Below are positions 16,815 through 63,414 of a stretch of 64,000 bases of DNA, piece by piece. A program made the position numbers and the translations under genes. The notes under the pieces are model-generated. The model was not told where the DNA came from, did no database searches, and saw nothing but the letters and a program-made list of their open reading frames with translations. The stretch's first letter is position 1. The number at the start of each line of letters is the position of its first letter. This DNA is from Octopus vulgaris (taxonomy: Eukaryota): assembly GCA_951406725.2 (NCBI GenBank), contig OX597815.1, positions 192,076,001 to 192,140,000 of the forward strand, in the 5' to 3' direction.

Positions 16815-17170
16815 GCCATTATGTTCTAAATTCAAATTCTGTCGAGGTTGACTTTGCCTTTCATCCTTTTGGGGTTGATTAAATAAGTACCAGTTACGCA
16901 CTGGGGTTGATATAATCGACTTAATCTGTTTGTCTGTCCTTGTTTGTCCCCTCTGTGTGTAACCCCTTGTGGGTAGTAAAGAAATAGGTATTTCATCTGT
17001 CTTTGTGTTCTGAGTTCAAATTCCGCCGAGGTTGACTTTGCCTTTCATCCTTTTGGAGTCGATTAAATAAGTACCAGTTACGCACTGGGGTCGATATAAT
17101 CGACTTAATCCATTTGTCTGTCCTTGTTTGTCCCCTCTGTGTGTAGCCCCTTGTGGGTAGTAAAGAAATA
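16815..17170 (+). mobile_element. Family C SINE body dimer
   Basis: Two tandem bodies of about 184 nt (GTTCAAATTCCGCCGAGGTCGACTTTGCCTTTCATCC...GGGTAGTAAAGAAATA) joined at GAAATAG|GTATTTC. Confidence 0.85.
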
Positions 17171-17271
17171 AGAAAAGGATTACTTCAACTGAGATTAGGT
17201 ACTGAACTGATACATGTTCTAGTTTACTTTCTATAGTACAGGTTCTGATGCTTTTGGAGAGTCCTTTAGAG

Positions 17272-17575: not shown

Positions 17576-17861
17576 AACACAACGTTTCAGCTGATATACC
17601 CATTTCTTTATTACCCACAAGGGGCTAAACACAGAGGGGACAAACAAGGACAGACATAGGTATTAAGTCGATTACATCGACCCCAGTGCATAACTGGTAC
17701 TTAATTTATCGACCCCGAAAGGATGAAAGGCAAAGTCGACCTCGGCGGAATTTGAACTCGCAATGTAACGCAGACGAAATACCGCTAAGCATCTCGCCCG
17801 GCGTGCTAACGTTTCTGCCAGCTCACCGTCGTAATATACCCTCCAGCCTTCATCAGGTGTC
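17576..17861 (-). ncRNA. Minimal hammerhead ribozyme motif split by a SINE insertion in loop II
   Basis: With the insert removed, the - strand reads GACAC-CTGATGA-A-GGCTG-gagggtatat-CAGCT-GAAA-CG-TT-GTGTT, with an intact core. The insert 17602-17833 is flanked by TSD ATATACCC (17594-17601 and 17834-17841). Confidence 0.8.
17602..17833 (-). mobile_element. Family C SINE, full monomer
   Basis: Head GAGCTGGCAGAAACGTTAGCACGCCGGGCG, B-box-like GAGTTCAAATTCC, 8-bp TSD. Confidence 0.9.
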
Positions 17862-22800: not shown

Positions 22801-24036
22801 TCAATCTGCTCATTTTAATATATATATACACATAGGACAGACACAGAAGAACCGTAATTATTCATCAGTTATTGACCAAAAAATACTAATATATATATAT
22901 ATCATCCTCATCACCATCATCATCCTTCAATGTTTCTTTTCCATGCTGATATATATATATATATATATTAGGGTGGTGAGCTGGCAGAAACGTTAGCATG
23001 CCGTTACATTCTGAGTTCAAATTCCGCTGAGGTTGACTTTGCCTTTCATCATTTTGAGGTCAATTAAATAAGTACCAGTTACACACTGGAGCCAATGTAA
23101 TTGACTTAATCCCTTTGTCTGTCCTTGTTTGTCTCCTCTTTGTTTAGTCCCCTGTGGGCAATAAAGAAATAGATATGTGTGTGTGTGTGTGTTTGTCTCC
23201 CACAACCATTTGACAATTGGCACTGGTATGCTTATGTCCCTGTAACTTAGCGATTTGGCAGAAGTGACTGATAAAATAAGTACAAGGTTTATAAAATTAG
23301 TACTGGTGGTCGAAACTTTTGGCTAAAATTGTTTAAGGCAGTGCTCCAGCATGGACATAATTTTATGACTGAAACAACTAAAAGACAATATATATATATG
23401 GTGCCATTCTTTTCAACCTTCCATGAAAATATGTCCAGTCAGAGGAAACATTACACAGAATCAAGTGAGGGTTGAAGACAGGGAAGGCATCCAGCTGTAG
23501 AAAATTACGTCAAATAATTTTATCTGACTCATGCAAGCATAGAGAAGTAGGCATTGAAATGATGCTGATATGTATATATAGGAAGGGCATCCAGCCGTAG
23601 AAACATTGCCAGATCAGACTGGGCCTGGTGCAGCGTTCTGGCTTCCCAGACCCTAGTTGAACCGTCCAACCCATGCTATCATGGAAAGCGGACGCTAAAT
23701 GATGATGATGATGATGATGATGATGTGTGTGTATGTAAATGATACCCATAAATTGTAGTTGTGGTTTTTGCTGGTACTATGAAAAGGGCACCTGCGAATC
23801 ATAGTCAGGGTCACTGCTGGTGTCATGTAAATGGTACCCATGCTGATGGCACCTGTGCTGGTGGCATGTAACAGTACCCATTACACTCCTGGAGTGGTTG
23901 GTATTAGGAATGGCATCCAGCTGTAGAAACTCTGCCAAATCAGACTGGAACCTGGGGCAGCTCTCCAGCTTCTCAGCTCCAGTCAACCATCTAACCCATG
24001 CCAGCTTGGTGAGTGGACGTTAAATGATGATGATAC

Positions 24037-25269: not shown

Positions 25270-26450
25270 TAATAGAGCGTTGGAAATGCATTAGATTAAT
25301 ACTGAAAACAAAGCTAAATGCTAAAAATAAGTTAATGGGTATTAATATTCTAGATGTTCCTGTAATAAGCAATAGCTATAACATTATCAGTTTAACACTA
25401 AATGAATTAACAAGAGTGAATAGGAAAGAAGAGAAAATATTAATTACCGCTACAAAAGCCCCACCCAACTCGCAGCACATAAATATTATATTTATCTTTA
25501 ATACAGAGAGGTTTTGTGCTGCTTGAATATTAATCCAAAATAACAACGTAGGACTAAAGAAATATCTAACAGAAATAGTTACAAAGCATGAATTAAAAGA
25601 ACGATGTAGCTTTTTGTTTCCAGGGAAGCCAATCAATATAAATGAGAGGCTGATGTAAAAGACAATTATGAGAAAAATGGGAGAAAATAAGAAGGAAATG
25701 AATTTGGAAAGCAGAAAATCAAACTGAAAATGGTTTCACCAAATGTTTGATGATGTGAAGACATTGGCAAGGAAAGCTTCTTCATGAGAAAACCGAATTT
25801 GAGAGGAATAGATAAAGTGGATTAAAACACTTGGCATGGATTTAGAAACTGTGGACTCAAAACTCAAAACTAAGGGTTTTGATCATGACACAAGTCCAAG
25901 TCCTTGTCACCAGAAATTATGAAAGGCAGCGAGCTGGTAGAAACGTTAGCACACCGGGCAAAATACTTAGCAGTATTTCGTCTGTTTTTATGTTCTGAGT
26001 TCAAATTCCGCCGAGGTCGACTTTGGCTTTCATCCTTTCGGGGTCGATAAATTAAGTACTAGTTACGCACTGGGGTCGATATAATTGACTTAATCTATTT
26101 GTCAGTCCTTGTTTGTCCCTTCTATGTTTAGCCTCTTGTGGGTAGTAAAGAAATAGGTATGTCGTCTGTTTTTACATTCTGAGTTCAAATTCCGCCAAGG
26201 TCAACTTTGCCTTTCATCCTTTCGGGGTCGATAAATTAAGTACCAGTTACGCACTGAGGTCAATGTAATCGACTTAATCCCTTTGTCTGTCCTTGTTTGT
26301 CCTCTCTGTATTTAGCCCCCTGTGGGTAATAAATAAATAAGAAATTATGGTAAACATGTAATGAAGTGGAATGTGAAAAAATTAACCACAGAATATGTAG
26401 ATGTGAGAAAGAATCAATCAGTCATATTGGCTCTGGATGGTAAATTTATA
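25270..26450 (+). mobile_element. Degenerate R4/Dong-like non-LTR retrotransposon fragment (post-RT region to CCHC knuckle)
   Basis: IRLILKTKLNAKNKLMGINILDVPVIS..LNELTRVNRK, VGLKKYL, a frameshifted GLK.ETEG..AQDQSL.TRNY-like stretch, and RICRCEKESISHIGSG. These motifs are typical of RLE-type R4/Dong ORFs. Confidence 0.75.
25922..26339 (+). mobile_element. Family C SINE: head plus two tandem 184-nt bodies
   Basis: TSD AGAAATTATG at 25912-25921 and 26340-26349. The bodies start at 25973 and 26157. Confidence 0.9.
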
Positions 26451-32485: not shown

Positions 32486-32658
32486 CAAGGTACTTGGTGA
32501 CTTTGTCAGTACCCCAAGGTACTTGGTGACTTTGTCAGTACCCCAAGGTACTTGGTGACTTTGTCAGTACCCCAAGGTACTTGGTGACTTTGTCAGTACC
32601 TCAAGGTACTTGGTGACTTTGACAGTACCTCAAGGTACTTGGTGACTTTGTCAGTACC
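32486..32658. repeat. 29-bp tandem repeat, 6 copies
   Basis: CAAGGTACTTGGTGACTTTGTCAGTACCC at 32486, 32515, 32544, 32573, 32602 and 32631. Confidence 0.95.
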
Positions 32659-33369
32659 AGTGTCGCACAAAAAGCAACCATGCTGGTGCCACGTAAAGAG
32701 CACCCAGGACACTCTGTAAAGTGGTTGGCGTTAGGAAGGGCAACCAGCTGTAGAAACTGCCAAAGCAGACTGTGGAACGTGGGGTGGTTCCTGGCTTTGC
32801 CAGCACCAGTCAAACAGTCAAATCCATGCCAGCATGGAAAGTATTAAGTGATGACGACGATGATGACAAACCTACACAAGTGAATGGGTGAAAAGCAAAG
32901 ATGAATTTTGAAAGAAGTTTTTTATTGAACCAGAACAAAATAGTAATTAAAGTGCTAGCACCACAAAAAGCTTCCAAAACATTCAATAAAGTGGTTGGCA
33001 TTAAGAAGGGCATCCAGTCATAGAAACCATGCCAGAACAGACGATTAGAACCTGGTGCAGCTCTTCAGCTTGCCAGCTTCTGTCAAACCTATTTCTTTAC
33101 TACCCACAAGGGGCTAAACACAAAGAGGACAAACAAGTACAGACAAATGGATTAAGTCGATTATATCGACCCCAGTGCGTAACTGGTACTTATTTAATCG
33201 ACCCCAAAAAAGATGAAAGGCAAAGTCGACCTCGGCGGAATTTGAACTCAGAACGTAACGGCAGACGAAATACGGCTACGCATTTCGCCCGGTGTGCTAA
33301 CGTTTCTGCCAGCTCGCCGCCTTCGGTCAAACCATCCAACCCATGCCAGTATGGAAAACAGATGTTAAG

Positions 33370-41657: not shown

Positions 41658-42075
41658 AAGGCAGTGAGCTGGCAGAAATGTTAGCACACTGGGTGAAATG
41701 CTTAGCAGTAGTTCGTCTGTCTTTATGTTCTGAGTTCAAATTCTGCTGAGGTCAACTTTGCCTTTTATCCTTTCGGGGTTGATAAATTAAGTACTAGTTG
41801 TGTACTGGGGTTGATCTAATCAACTGGCTCCCTCCCCCAAAATTTCAGGGGTCGATTAAATAAGTACTAGTTGTGTATTAGGGTCGATCTAATCAACTGG
41901 CTCCCTCCCCAAAAATTTCGGGGTCGATTAAATAAGTACTAGTTGTGTACTGGGGTTGATCTAATCAACTGGCTCCCTCCCCCAAAATTTCGGGGTCGAT
42001 TAAATAAAGTACTAGTTGTGTACAGTGGTCGATCTAATCAACTGGCTCCCTCCCACAAAATTTCGGGGTCGATTT
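41658..42075 (+). mobile_element. Family C-type SINE with 4 tandem copies of a 72-73-bp 3' segment
   Basis: CAACTGGCTCCCTCC recurs at 41821, 41894, 41966 and 42039. Confidence 0.85.
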
Positions 42076-42617: not shown

Positions 42618-42853
42618 TTAAATCACATTATTAGGACAAATTGTTAGGACACATTATTAGGACAAATTGTTAGGACACATTATTAGGACAAATTTGAAAA
42701 CTGACACTCTATCGGTTATGACGACAAGGGTTCCAGCTGATCTGTTAAACAGAACAGCCTGCTTGTGAAATTAACATGCAAGTGGCTGAGTACTCCTCAG
42801 ACATATGTACACTTAAAGAAGTTCTCAGAGAGATTCAGTGTGACACAGAATGT

Positions 42854-43307: not shown

Positions 43308-45105
43308 CAGAATGTGACAAGGCTGGCCCTTCACAATTCAGGTACTATTCATGTTTGCCAGATGGGTGGACAGGAACAATGTGAAATAAAGTGTCATGTA
43401 CTGCCAGAAATTGAACCCATGACCTTACTATCATGAGCTACATACCCTAACCACTAAGTCATGTACCTTCACATATGACATATTTTAAATACTAATAAAA
43501 GTTTATGACTAGGTTACGATGTTAATGACTCGATCACTATGTAAATAGACAGGTCACAATGTTAATAAACCGGTCACATGTTAATAGCCAAGTTACATTG
43601 TTAATGGACGGGTCATAATCTTAATAAATCAATAGAGATATTGATGAACAAGTCTAAGTTTTAATCGTTTGTTTAATTGCCCATTATTATGGTCGCTTAC
43701 AGAAGCAAAACTACGAAGCTCAGAGGATTTAAACAATAGTGTTAATGTTAATACAATTAAAGTGATATCGTTAAATACTGTGACAAAGGAGCCTTTATGT
43801 AGATGCTCAAACTGCTAGAAATAATAGCCAATAGATAGCGGTTTTTGGTTCATCATCATCATCATCATCATCTTTTAAAATCCACTTTCCATGCTGGCAC
43901 AGGGTTAGACGGTTTGACTGAAGACTGACAAGCCAGGAGGCTGCACCAGGCTCTGATCTAATCTAGCAAGGTTCCTACAGTTGGATGCCCTTCCTAACAT
44001 TGACCACTCCAAGAGCATAGTGGGAGATTTTTATGTGCCACTGGCATAGTGGTCAGTCAGGCAGTACTTGCATTGACCATGTTTGAATGGTGCTTTTTAC
44101 ATGCCACCAGCACAGGGGCCAGTTAAAGCAGTATCGGCATTGGCCATGACAATGATTTCACTTCAACGATGAAGTCGATTATATCGACCCCAGTGCGTAA
44201 CTGATACTTATTTAATCGACCCCGAAAGGATGAAAGGCAAAGTTGACCCCGGCAGAATTTGAACTCAAAACTCAGACGAAATTCTGCTAAGCATTTCGCC
44301 TGGTGTGCTAACGTTTCTGCTGGCTCGCCGCCCTCTTTCAGTTTCTGTCTACCAAATCCACTCACAAGGCTTTGGTTGCCCAGACCCTATAGTAGAAGAC
44401 ACTTGCCCGAGGTGCCATGCAGTGGGACTGAACCTGGAACCATGTGGTTGGGAAGCCACACAGCCATACCTGCACCTATGACCTAACTGCAATAAACAAT
44501 TTTTAATGACATAATTTTTGATTATTTAAGAGGGGAAAAATAATGTTCTTGACTCAGAAATAAAACCTCTAAAAGGAAAAACATTTAGAAAAGTAATCAT
44601 GCAATGTAAAGATTTAGAATTCATAGATTTTAGCAAAATAGGCTGGTCAGTCGCATAATTAATCAAACAGAGTGTTTCTTCTGATAATGTGGCTAAAATT
44701 TTAATCAAATCGTGAAGTGACCAATGTTGATTTAAACTTCTGGACAGCAAAATATAAATCTGATTTGAGGAAATAATCTCTTATTTACTTATTTATTGAT
44801 GTAACAAATTTAGATGTATGTGTGTGTGTATGTATGTGTATATATATATGTGTGTGCGTGTATGTGTGTGTGTGTGTGTCTGTGTGTCTGTGTACATATC
44901 TAGCGTATATATGCATCTACCTGCCTGTCTATCTATCTATCTATCTATCAATCTAGGTGTGTGCATATGTGTGTGTGTGTATGTATGTAGATATTACATC
45001 ATCATCACCGTTTAACGTCTGCTTTCCATGCTAGCATGGTTAGACGATTTGACTGAGGTCTGGCAAACCAGATGGCTGCACCAGACTCCAATTTGATCTA
45101 GCTGA

Positions 45106-53995: not shown

Positions 53996-55044
53996 ATCTG
54001 TTTATATTCTGAGTTTAAATGCCGCCCTGGTTCACTTTTGTGATTTGCTCAACCGAGGTTGATAAAATAAATTTCAGTATTGCTGTAACACACAATATCA
54101 CAGAAGGTGATGTATTAGTGAGGTCATAGTTTAAAGAATAAAAGAATTAAAGAATAAAAGAATTAAAGAATTACAGACTAAAAGAGATAGTGATGTTGTA
54201 GAATCAAAATTGAAGGATTCACTCTAAGTTCTTTGTGCCACAGTATAAGAATTTAAATGATTGCACAGTTTCGAAGACATTTCTTATTTTTTCTATTTTT
54301 TTTTTTGTCAGAATTTGCTAAATTTGCCATCATGATAATGTGAAGAAATGGCCATTAAGAAAATGGATTTTAATTTGCATAGCGTGATGTAATTTGCATA
54401 CTGGTGTTAGTTTAACAACAATTAGGAATTACTTGTACACCAACAATTATCGCATGGAAAAATGTCAACGAGTAAAAGACAAAATAATAAACAACAGACA
54501 AAATTTGTTATTCCGAAATGTATTGTTTTTAAGCTTCACCATCATCATCATCATCGTTTAACGTCCGTTTTCCATGCTAGCATGGGTTGGACGGTTCAAC
54601 CGGGGTCTGGGAAGCCAGGAGGCTGCACTAGGCCCCAGTCTGATCTGGCAGTTTCTACAGCTGGATGCTCTTCCTAATGCCAACCACTCCGTGAGTGTAG
54701 TGGGTGCTTTTTACGTGCCACTGGCACAGGTGCCAGGTGAGGCTGGCAATGGCCACGATTGGATGGTGCTTTTTATGTGCCTCCGGCACTGGTATCACAA
54801 CTACAATTTCCATTGATTTTTTTTTTTTGATCGATTTTGATTTCGCTTGCCTCAACAGGTCTTCGCAAGCAGAATTTCAAACAAGTAATTTCATTGCGGA
54901 TTGAAAACTTGCAACTATGCCTATAAGTTGTTGGTATAGCCATGGCTGTGTGGTTAGAAGTTTGCTTCCCAACCACATGGTTCTGGGTTCAATTCCACTC
55001 CTTGGAAACTTCAGCAGCTATCGTTTACTGTAGCCTTGAACAGA

Positions 55045-55635
55045 CCAAAGCCTTGTGAATGGATTTGGTAGACAGAAACTGAAAGGAGCCCATCGTGTAT
55101 ACATATCGTTTCTTTTACTTGTTACTGTCATTTGACTGCGGCCATGCTGGAGCACCACCTCTAGTTAAACATTGGGTCAACCAAAGCCTTGTGAATGGAT
55201 TTGGTAGACAGAAACTGAAAGGAGCCCATCGTGTATACATATCGTTTCTTTTACTTGTTAATGTCATTTGACTGCGGCCATGCTGGAGCACCACCTTTAG
55301 TTAAACATTAGGCTAACCAAAGCCTTGTGAGTGGATTTGGTAGACGGAAACTGAAAGGAGTCTATTGTGTATACATATCGTTTCTTTTACTTGTTACTGT
55401 CATTTGACTGCAGCCATGCTGGAGCACCACCTTTAGTTAAACATTGGGCCAACCAAAGCCTTGTGAGTGGATTTGGTAGACGGAAACTGAAAGGAGTCCA
55501 TCGTATATACATATTGTTTCTTTTACTTGTTACTGTCATTTGACTGCAGCCATGCTGGAGCACCACCTTTAGTTAAACATTGGGCCAACCAAAGCCTTGT
55601 GAGTGGATTTGGTAGACGGAAACTGAAAGAAGCCT
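55045..55635. repeat. 136-bp tandem repeat (about 4.3 copies) inside a family B SINE
   Basis: CCAAAGCCTTGTG at 55045, 55181, 55317, 55453 and 55589. Confidence 0.95.
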
Positions 55636-56391: not shown

Positions 56392-56745
56392 GGTGAAGGC
56401 ACATGGCTCAGTGGTTAGAGCATCAGGTTCACAATCATGAGGTGGTGAGTTCAATTCCTGGATCTGTCTGTGTGTTGTGTTCTTGAGCAAGACAGTTTAT
56501 TTCATGTTGCTCCAGTTCACTCAGCTGTGGAAATGAGTTGCAGCATCATTACTGGTGCCAAGCTGTATTGGCCCCTTTGCCTTTCCCTTGGATAACATCG
56601 GTGGCATGGAGAGAAGAGTCTGGTATGCATGGGTGACTGCTGAGTCTTCCATAAAACAACCTTGCCTGGACTTGTGCCTTGGAGGGGAACTTTCTAGGTG
56701 CAATCCCATGGTCATTTATGACTGAAGTGGTGTCTTTACCCTTTA
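56392..56745 (+). mobile_element. Family D SINE, full length
   Basis: GTGAAGGCACATGGCTCAGTGGTTAGAGC head. Body matches 24108-24448. Confidence 0.85.
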
Positions 56746-56804
56746 TTTCCTCAACCCTGAAACGATGAGGCAAAGTCAACCTTGGTGGTATTTAAACTCA
56801 ATAT

Positions 56805-57405
56805 AAGGCAGCAAGCTGGCAGAAACGTTAGCACGCCGGGCAAAATGCCTAGCGGTATTTCGTCTGCTGTTCAATTCGTTCTGGGTTCAAATTCCGCCGA
56901 GGTCGACTTTGCCTTTCATCCTTTCGGGGTTGATTAACTAAGTACTAGTTACGCAAGGCAAAGTCGACCTCGGCGGAATTTGAACTCAGAACGTAGCAGC
57001 AGACAAAATACCTATTTCTTTACTACCCACAAGAGGCTAAACAGAGAGGGGACAAATAAGGACAGACAAACAGATTAAGTCTATTATATCGACCCCAGTG
57101 CGTAACTGGTACTTATTTAATCGACCCCAAAAGGATGAAACTAAGTACTAGTTACGCCCTGGGGTCGATGTAATCGACTTAATCCATTTGTCTGTCCTTG
57201 TTTGTCCTCTCTGTGTTTAGCCCCTTGTGGGTAGTAAAGAAATAGGTATTTCGTCTGCTGTTACATCCTGAGTTCAAATACCGCCGTGGTTGACTTTGCC
57301 TTTCACCCTTTCGGGGTCGATACGCACTGGGTTCGATGTAATCGACTTAATCCGTTTGTCTGTCCTTGTTTGGCCCCTCTTGCGGGTAGTAAAGAAATAG
57401 GTATT
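56805..57405 (+). mobile_element. Family C SINE dimer containing an inverted, permuted family C unit (56955-57138)
   Basis: 19-bp direct repeat AACTAAGTACTAGTTACGC at 56936-56954 and 57139-57157. Confidence 0.85.
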
Positions 57406-57979
57406 TGAACTCAAAAACCAGACGAAACGGCACTAAACATTTCATCCGACACATTCACAATTCTACCAGCTTGCCACCATAATGGAAGCTTGTCTTATAA
57501 TGGAAAGAATCTCAACAAATATATCTAAATTTCTCTGCAAGCCTAGTATTTTCGCTTAGATGCCTAAATATATAATTAACTTTATTAATATATTTTTTTT
57601 TCCTCTCCATCTTACAATTTTACAAATGTTACCGCCTGTTGTTTTAAGGCTTCAATTTATGCACGGCTAAAACGATACAAATATTTATATCCTTCTTCTT
57701 GTAATAATGGCACCGTTGGAAGATTTTAATGCTATAGAACACCATTTGCAATTAGGTATTAACATTGTACTCATTGTTCTAGAGGCACAGTTTCTTAAGA
57801 ATCATTCCATCAATGTAAAATGTAAGATATAATTTAAATACGATTCTCCCACATTGTGTATTGAATGGAGATTGAACGTGATAAATTTCATATTGATAAA
57901 CCATTGTTATTATCTCTTGGTATTTAAAGCACCTAATCTGATTGTTTGAGTGTTACAGTCCCATATTTCATTTAACCGT

Positions 57980-62123: not shown

Positions 62124-63414
62124 TGATCCTTATATATATATATATATATATATCATCATCATCATCATCGTTTAACGTCCACTTTCCATGCTAGCATGGG
62201 TTGGACGATTTTGACTGAGGACTGGCAAACCAGATGGCTGCACCAGACTCCAATCTTGATCTGGCAGAGTCTCTACAGCTAATTGCCCTTCCTAATGCCA
62301 ACCACTCCGAGAGTGTAGTGGGTGCTTTTTACTTGCCACCGGCCTTGCTTGAATACTTTTACACATGCCACCAGCACAGGTGAGCAGTAAGGCGACGTTG
62401 GTAACGATCACACTCGAATGGTGCCCTTTTACGTGTCACTGGCATGGAAGCCAGTTGGCTGCTCTGGCAACAATCACGCTTGGATGGTGCTCTATGGCAT
62501 ATAGCGCGGGCATATATATATATATATGTATGTATGTCTCATGTAATTATTGGACTGTAAGGAGGGCCATTGGGTACCATTCACAGTGTTGATTTCTCCA
62601 GCAGTGAAGCAGGGTTGAGGAAAGGGATCTAGCAACTTCTTTTCACAGGAAAGCCTAAAACACCATAGAACTGTCCCAAGACAGCTCACTGTGCAATACA
62701 CAGCATGACATAACTACCACCACCAACACAACAACAACAACAATAATAATGATAATAATTATTTGTACTCCAGGCACCAGGCCTTGAAAATCTTTCGGGG
62801 TAAGGGGTAAGGGGGTTAGTTGATTACATTGAACCCCAGTGCGTAACTGGAAAGGATGAAAGGCTGAAAGGATGAAAGGCAAAGTTGACCTTAGTGGAAT
62901 TTGAACTCAGAATGTAGCAACAGGCGAATTACTGCTAAGCATTTTGCATGGTGTGCCAATGATTACGCCAGCTCACCACCTGAAAACAATTAATAATAAC
63001 AATAATAATAATAATAATAATAATTGAACAATCTGGTGTGTTTATTTTGATGGCCTAGGTGTCAGGAAGACACTCAGCAAGAAATGGAAACAGAATTGAA
63101 AGATGATGATAATAATAATAATAATAACAATAATAATAATAATAATAATAATAATAACGATAATATTTGCAATATTAATGATTATGGTTTCTGATTTTAT
63201 GACAAGGCTGGCCATTTAAGGGAAGGGGATTAATGGATGGCATCAGCCCCCATCGCTTGACTTGTACTTTATTTAATTAAGGCCCATAAGGATGAAAGGC
63301 AAAGTTGACCTTGGCAGAATTTGAACTTGGAATGCAAACAGCCGGAAAGAGAAAAAGAATGAGACATTGGCATTTTTCTGATGGTGTAACAATTTTGCTT
63401 GTTCTCTGCTTTGT

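Follow-up and report, generated by a model that had tools for sequence, protein, structure and literature searches.

A one-period, permuted SINE unit within a SINE dimer of Octopus vulgaris: a candidate reintegrated repeat circle

The insert and the SINEs that hold it

The window (the whole 64,000-nt stretch of Octopus vulgaris DNA analysed here) is repeat-rich, animal-type DNA with many microsatellites and tRNA-like SINE heads. A plus-strand, headed dimer of one SINE family at 56805-57399 is interrupted by a second sequence of the same family, inserted in inverted orientation, and the dimer itself lies in an older related SINE, a nesting of three levels (Table 1). As originally noted, the insert is flanked by 19-bp target-site duplications (TSDs; AACTAAGTACTAGTTACGC), which are exact at 56936 and 57139 and have no further match on either strand of the window. 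The 184 nt between them begin with AAGGCAAAG, end with GGATGA and are a minus-strand piece of a tRNA-type SINE. This piece lacks both the head and the terminal tail: it starts in the middle of the body, contains the tail-to-body junction internally, at 57012/57013, and stops at the base that precedes its own start. Its length equals the period of the dimers found elsewhere in the window, for which TRF gives 184 nt at 25973-26339 and at 16822-17170. In the 58-nt part that follows the junction, there is a motif that we take, by eye and from the consensus, to be B-box-like.

Table 1. Coordinates of the insert, of the nested SINEs around it and of two comparators
Feature	Position	Strand	Remarks
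Comparator: 5'-truncated dimer with native tail	16819..17175	+	about 355 nt, not a multiple of 184; subfamily alleles of the insert
Comparator: headed dimer	25922..26345	+	10-bp duplication around the whole element
Older related SINE holding the host dimer	56743..57478	-	body 56743-56800 (BLAST match 56800-56743), head about 57415-57478 (direct reading)
Host's own 15-bp duplication, left copy	56787..56801	+	14/15 match; begins GGTATTT
Host SINE, left part	56805..56954	+	tRNA-like head and start of unit 1
19-bp TSD, left copy	56936..56954	+	part of host unit 1; host alleles C56938, T56946
Insert, one permuted 184-nt SINE period	56955..57138	-	no head, no terminal tail
Insert, last 58 nt in element sense, body start (GGTATTT...)	56955..57012	-	presumed B-box-like motif; ends GCCTT
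Insert, first 126 nt in element sense, mid-body to tail	57013..57138	-	ends AAAGAAATA
19-bp TSD, right copy	57139..57157	+	19/19 identical; first 2 nt also native element sequence (5' junction microhomology)
Host SINE, right part	57158..57399	+	remainder of unit 1, junction 57244/57245, unit 2 (155 nt, two internal deletions)
Host's own 15-bp duplication, right copy	57400..57414	+	

The end and the start of the insert, when rejoined, restore family sequence, as had been claimed, but of the 3-4 equivalent ways to place the boundaries, one bears out the further claim that no base is gained or lost. The AA at 57139-57140 can be assigned either to the insert or to the target (2-nt microhomology at the right junction), and position 57158 is C where the family has A, so that the target may have supplied the insert's first A (a possible 1 nt on the left). 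Because of this microhomology, the element-derived length can be anything from 183 to 186 nt. In the 26 kb dimer, the native antisense context reads GGATGAAAGGCAAAG. When contigs of three public runs (X1, X2 and X3) were aligned to 56700-57900, family contigs with loose ends continued as ...GAAAGGATGA before 56955 (113, 93 and 143 contigs in the three runs) and as GGCAAAG... behind 57140 (223, 187 and 274), and with these continuations at both ends, the end and the start of the insert rejoin into family sequence. Contigs of all three runs also extend from the unique right flank into the 3' end of the host. The alignment covered four runs out of 24; the fourth, the raw-read run X22, contributed 11 reads and was left out.

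A scan of the window for direct repeats (exact, 12-40 nt, 40-1200 nt apart, with unlike flanks) yielded 19 cases. In our own reading, the repeat around the insert alone brackets an inserted element, and most of the other cases stem from repeats within tandem arrays or SINE copies. The structure is real and tidy, and it is found at one locus.

At the target, the two host alleles give rise to a perfect 6-bp inverted repeat (56935-56951, TAACTA-AGTAC-TAGTTA). The homologous segment is affected by a 16-nt deletion in host unit 2, and the copy at 62809-62974 is also rearranged there. Contigs of X1 and X2 contain a joint from 57123 to 56814 (mid-unit to head, with three extra letters) at about 13-15x single-copy depth, which is possibly a recurrent rearranged subfamily.

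Dimers of the family and their tail-to-body junction

Four copies in the window bear the tail-to-body junction; a fifth match is the 3' end of the host running into its duplication. The insert is the only copy of its type among the four, and the other three all end at the native tail, two of them with a head, so linear templates of multimers exist. The presence of the junction inside the insert had been put forward as a mark of a circular intermediate. That argument falls, because the same junction is found in three linear dimers, including the headed ones, and by itself is no sign of a circle.

In each of the dimers (16819-17175, 25922-26345 and 56805-57399), each unit has its subfamily alleles in common with its own partner, and there is no grouping of first units with one another. 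The units of the 16 kb dimer are 3.5% apart and have a private allele in common, and those of the 26 kb dimer share some sites and differ at two. Descent from a single ancestral dimer master is not supported, given that first and second units are not told apart by any site that holds in all three dimers. From this comparison of three dimers, it seems that the same junction formed more than once. Scans for the junction and body motifs found no loci in metagenomes, viral contigs and prokaryote genomes.

The acceptor of the junction, GGTATTTCG, starts at the loop of the head hairpin or immediately behind it in the predicted fold of 3/5 heads; the head fold itself has modest z-scores, from -0.5 to -2.6. 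Of the six tail-ended copies, four have letters resembling the GGTAT of the junction behind the tail, and two have a repeat of the tail there. The target letters that follow the tail begin with GGT in two of the six (P about 0.002), with the near matches GGGTAT and GATAT in two more. This pattern suggests that an internal tail of a multimer RNA is often the place where copying starts, with priming on the GGTATTT that follows, or else that the endonuclease prefers that sequence. Under such a preference, the head of the family itself would also be favoured as a target, and the junction would thereby be recreated repeatedly. A tie between the start of target duplications and the 3' repeats of SINEs has been described (PMC6007223). 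We consider the recurrent, precise junction of tail to hairpin loop the more promising lead.

The head hairpin has 11-13 bp and is located between the A- and B-box-like motifs (33243-33322, 17752-17828 and 25926-26005). It is lost in the copy at 22970, and contigs of two runs skip 61 nt across it (56835 to 56897). In headed copies (17590-17845, 33078-33340, 56787-57414 and 22945-23183), GGT, GGGTAT, GGTATTT or GATAT stands at the start of the target duplication, which matches the letters behind the tail in the dimers.

As to its identity, we take the family to resemble the octopus tRNA-SINEs (OK, OR1 and OR2; CORE-SINE). OR2 has been classed as a CORE SINE (PMC4758252). In a comparison with MetaSINEs made by eye only, the body is unlike that of BivaMeta-SINE1 (supplement 2 of PMC4824008).

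Routes to a single permuted period

It is established that the insert lies between duplications, spans one period, is permuted and came from another locus, and that multimers with the junction exist. The slightly favoured reading is that the insert is a single permuted period from elsewhere that was released as a circle from a tandem multimer of the SINE unit. The circle would have been opened at a new point and then captured at a 19-nt staggered break, perhaps made by the LINE endonuclease that serves the SINE family. We put the probability of this reading at about 0.47. A circle of one unit gives the one-period length by construction, and the substrate is plentiful, with 3 dimers in 64 kb; in addition, 300,000-400,000 contigs per run match a SINE-rich stretch of 1.2 kb. 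The insert is tailless, and the target complementarity at its 3' end amounts to just 0-1 nt, so it was not primed in the way that is usual for the family. The original prediction of a circular intermediate stands insofar as the insert is an exact, permuted unit of one period, but the exact period at one locus is the evidence on which the circle depends, and a linear route is nearly as likely. Among the points that count against the circle are the single locus and the other headless copy (16819-17175), which is about 355 nt long, no multiple of 184, and ends at the native tail.

As for the nature of such a circle, DNA that looped out when the paired units of a dimer recombined is a tentative option, and a nicked circular RNA, copied once from end to end, is a more doubtful one. 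The DNA circle needs nothing beyond recombination between two dimer units, for which the abundant dimers offer ample material. With an RNA circle, the lack of end trimming, a duplication of the kind left by retroposition and the recurrence of the junction at the hairpin loop would all be accounted for; against it are the lack of a ribozyme and of any special fold and the inability of a 184-nt circle alone to give headed dimers. The data at the insert fit both alike, and the trace of a DNA circle would look no different from that of a single-stranded, one-period loop-out excised after slippage of a dimer.

Indeed, no known ribozyme family was identified in the unit among 8 Rfam matches up to E 5, and a search of either strand for a CUGANGA-like hammerhead core, with up to 1 mismatch, found none. 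The predicted linear fold of the unit is no better than those of shuffled sequences (z +0.36), and for the circular fold, z is +0.8 for the insert and -0.7 and +1.6 for two other periods. Pairing of tail and body as a guide for circularisation was rejected: the small palindrome at the junction, GAAAT-AGGT-ATTTC, has a pair probability of 0.03 in the circle and 0.0 in the headed monomer. It appears improbable that the family spreads in part via a ribozyme-free circular RNA. Such an RNA would be cut in the loop of the head hairpin, and ligation of the resulting end to the tail would close it into a circle of 184 nt. Reverse transcription that ran around this circle or onto it would recreate the junction and yield both multimers and phase-permuted monomers.

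The choice between the circle and the linear route is close to a coin toss. In the linear route, a dimer RNA would have been retroposed, with reverse transcription starting in unit 2 (at a broken end or by internal priming) and stopping in unit 1 at the 2-nt microhomology, so that the period would be matched by coincidence. Headed dimers with duplications of their own show that linear dimer RNAs do get copied. When a linear RNA undergoes target-primed reverse transcription, a long duplication, such as the 19 bp seen here, and 2 nt of microhomology at the 5' side are also what remains. Retrocopies that are tailless or truncated at both ends are well documented, and in human, relaxed screening found 5,593 doubly truncated, TSD-flanked retrocopies compared to 708 full-length L1 (PMC5322556), which lowers the prior for circles.

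It was originally argued that random truncation of a dimer would rarely give exactly one period. When a headed dimer RNA loses sequence from both ends, one period results with a chance of 4/233 (1.7%) over the ambiguity window and, if the TT microhomology is required, of 1/29 (3.4%), the same TT being present at 29/233 positions. Such an outcome is uncommon, in keeping with the argument, but it is not negligible; furthermore, exactness itself was the reason why the insert was picked out. What weighs against the linear route is that two separate breakpoints must coincide, with the odds just given, and that internal priming normally involves complementarity to the target (PMC5322556), of which the insert has next to none. 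With assumed priors of 2-20% and a chance of 30-60% that no trimming occurred, the posterior for the circle spans 0.15-0.90; the prior is unmeasured, and the posterior depends on it.

A period of exactly 184 nt could also arise without a circle if a multimer RNA was cut by a ribozyme or a nuclease, or was terminated, at one fixed site per unit, producing unit-length linear RNAs of fixed phase that were then retroposed. A T4 run at the same position in a sister copy (41658) would fit this scheme, but the searches for a ribozyme family and for a hammerhead core described above were negative, and the phase of the insert is not shared by the start or the end of any other copy in the window, so we consider this scheme very improbable.

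The claim that the insert is not a local fold-back is borne out by its divergence from the host. Compared to the phase-matched pre-insertion host, it has 20/184 mismatches, and the host alleles C56938 and T56946 are present in both duplications and absent from the same segment of the insert. Hence, the source was another locus, and the insertion occurred after the host had gained these alleles. The insert has 17 mismatches to the 16 kb dimer and 18 to the 26 kb dimer, and its best identity to any copy in the window is about 91%. At the subfamily sites (11 units compared), its affinity is with the 16 kb dimer and the 33 kb monomer, not with the host, and it differs from both host units at one such site. 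Outside CpG, it is 4.9-5.8% distant from that dimer and monomer (4.9-5.1% from the dimer alone) and 7.1% from the host. The 16 kb dimer was nevertheless rejected as the donor, its private allele being missing from the insert. The perfect duplication hints, weakly, at a young event from an already diverged source (P = 0.15-0.41 if both aged like the insert).

These same observations bear on local template switching (a fold-back, or an inversion with flanking duplication) that would have copied the host's own unit in reverse. The insert sits inverted in its own family, which makes up about 4% of the window, just 39 nt separate the phase point from the insertion point and a long inverted repeat results, all of which fit such switching; yet the host alleles, the subfamily site and the non-CpG distances largely refute it, and we give it almost no weight. 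Twin priming was rejected on anatomical grounds, the inverted piece being internal and having its own duplication. An assembly artefact in this repeat-dense region is comparably far-fetched: although no read or contig spanning either end of the insert is present among the contigs listed, there are 583,162 further pieces and 840 further joints beyond these, so that such an absence means little, and the insert is no closer than about 91% to any copy in the window and its duplication is clean.

Related systems and other repeats in the window

The closest parallel to the circle reading comes from satellites. Sproul et al. described six arrays in which the truncated first and last repeats together make up one monomer, the expected product of eccDNA reintegration (PMC7403614). 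The ends of the insert similarly form one complete monomer (184 nt, range 183-186), a tandem source of that period exists elsewhere and the insert is non-local. As in the Rsp-like eccDNA arrays of Drosophila simulans and D. mauritiana, the truncated ends amount to one full monomer and the insertion is into another repeat, and some of the junctions there come with a flanking duplication (32 bp) and microhomology (PMC7403614). Unlike those arrays, the present case involves the unit of a dispersed SINE dimer, a single period and one locus instead of six (PMC7403614). By analogy, the insert would be a fresh instance of a signature already described for satellite circles and may work like a reintegrated repeat circle.

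Animal non-LTR retrozymes, for which a circular RNA has been proposed as the intermediate, also have low-GC tandem units of 150-400 nt and long duplications (15 bp in Nematostella) (PMC7229834, PMC4918200). In contrast to these, no hammerhead or other known ribozyme was found in the unit, which is also not highly paired, and the SINE family has a tRNA-like head and a LINE-type tail (PMC7229834, PMC4918200, 10.64898/2026.07.22.740005). The identification of the unit as a retrozyme was rejected on the first two of these grounds. The insert resembles the circRNA-derived pseudogenes of Dong et al. (2016) in having a non-colinear junction inside and no poly(A) tail, but in those pseudogenes the junction is a back-splice absent from the parent gene, whereas the junction of the insert is already present in three linear genomic dimers (PMC4897178). 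With the junction present in linear genomic parents, it is not diagnostic of a back-splice pseudogene, and this candidate was rejected as well.

Tailless retropseudogenes have in common with the insert the 3' truncation and a duplication (8-35 nt), and doubly truncated forms exist; however, they have complementarity at the priming site, compared to 0-1 nt for the insert, and do not predict an exact period (PMC5322556). The fit is therefore a partial one. The SINE-derived satellites of squamates are likewise tandem repeats of part of a SINE and are attributed to unequal recombination (PMC10702118). The accessible text of that study makes no mention of circles, and here, unlike there, dimers were mobilised whole and have one precise junction in common (PMC10702118). 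The Zorro3 LINE indicates that LINE machinery can make RNA-derived DNA circles, as the circle route needs, although this was in a yeast model and with an autonomous element, not with unit circles of a SINE multimer (PMC3510499). In the literature searched, from which subscription papers and supplements were mostly absent, we found no description of one-period permuted or circular units of a SINE dimer.

If one-period permuted inserts proved to be over-represented, a high-copy SINE would provide a countable fossil record of the re-entry of small circles, of DNA or RNA, into the animal germline, the rate of which is hard to measure directly, and SINE multimers would also be linked to the birth of satellites. 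If the circle was an RNA made without a ribozyme, this would be a new route of SINE mobilisation. At present, there is one well-formed case, and chance is almost as good an explanation of it.

Several other repeats in the window were noted. A sister SINE with the same head and body and another tail (41771-42074) contains a 73-nt unit repeated 4.2 times and joined at a TTTC microhomology. The array at 55044-55634 consists of 4.3 copies of a 136-nt unit at 95% identity and looks like a permuted part of another dispersed repeat; sequence similar to this unit flanks the SINE at 44168-44335. The array is a second candidate for the circle question. A different tRNA-headed SINE is located at 56397-56745 (Rfam tRNA match, E 0.085), and its body resembles, by eye, that of BivaCORE-SINE2 (supplement 2 of PMC4824008). 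Finally, there are two young, near-perfect minisatellites, at 32486-32658 (29 nt x 6) and at 42624-42694 (26 nt x 2.7).
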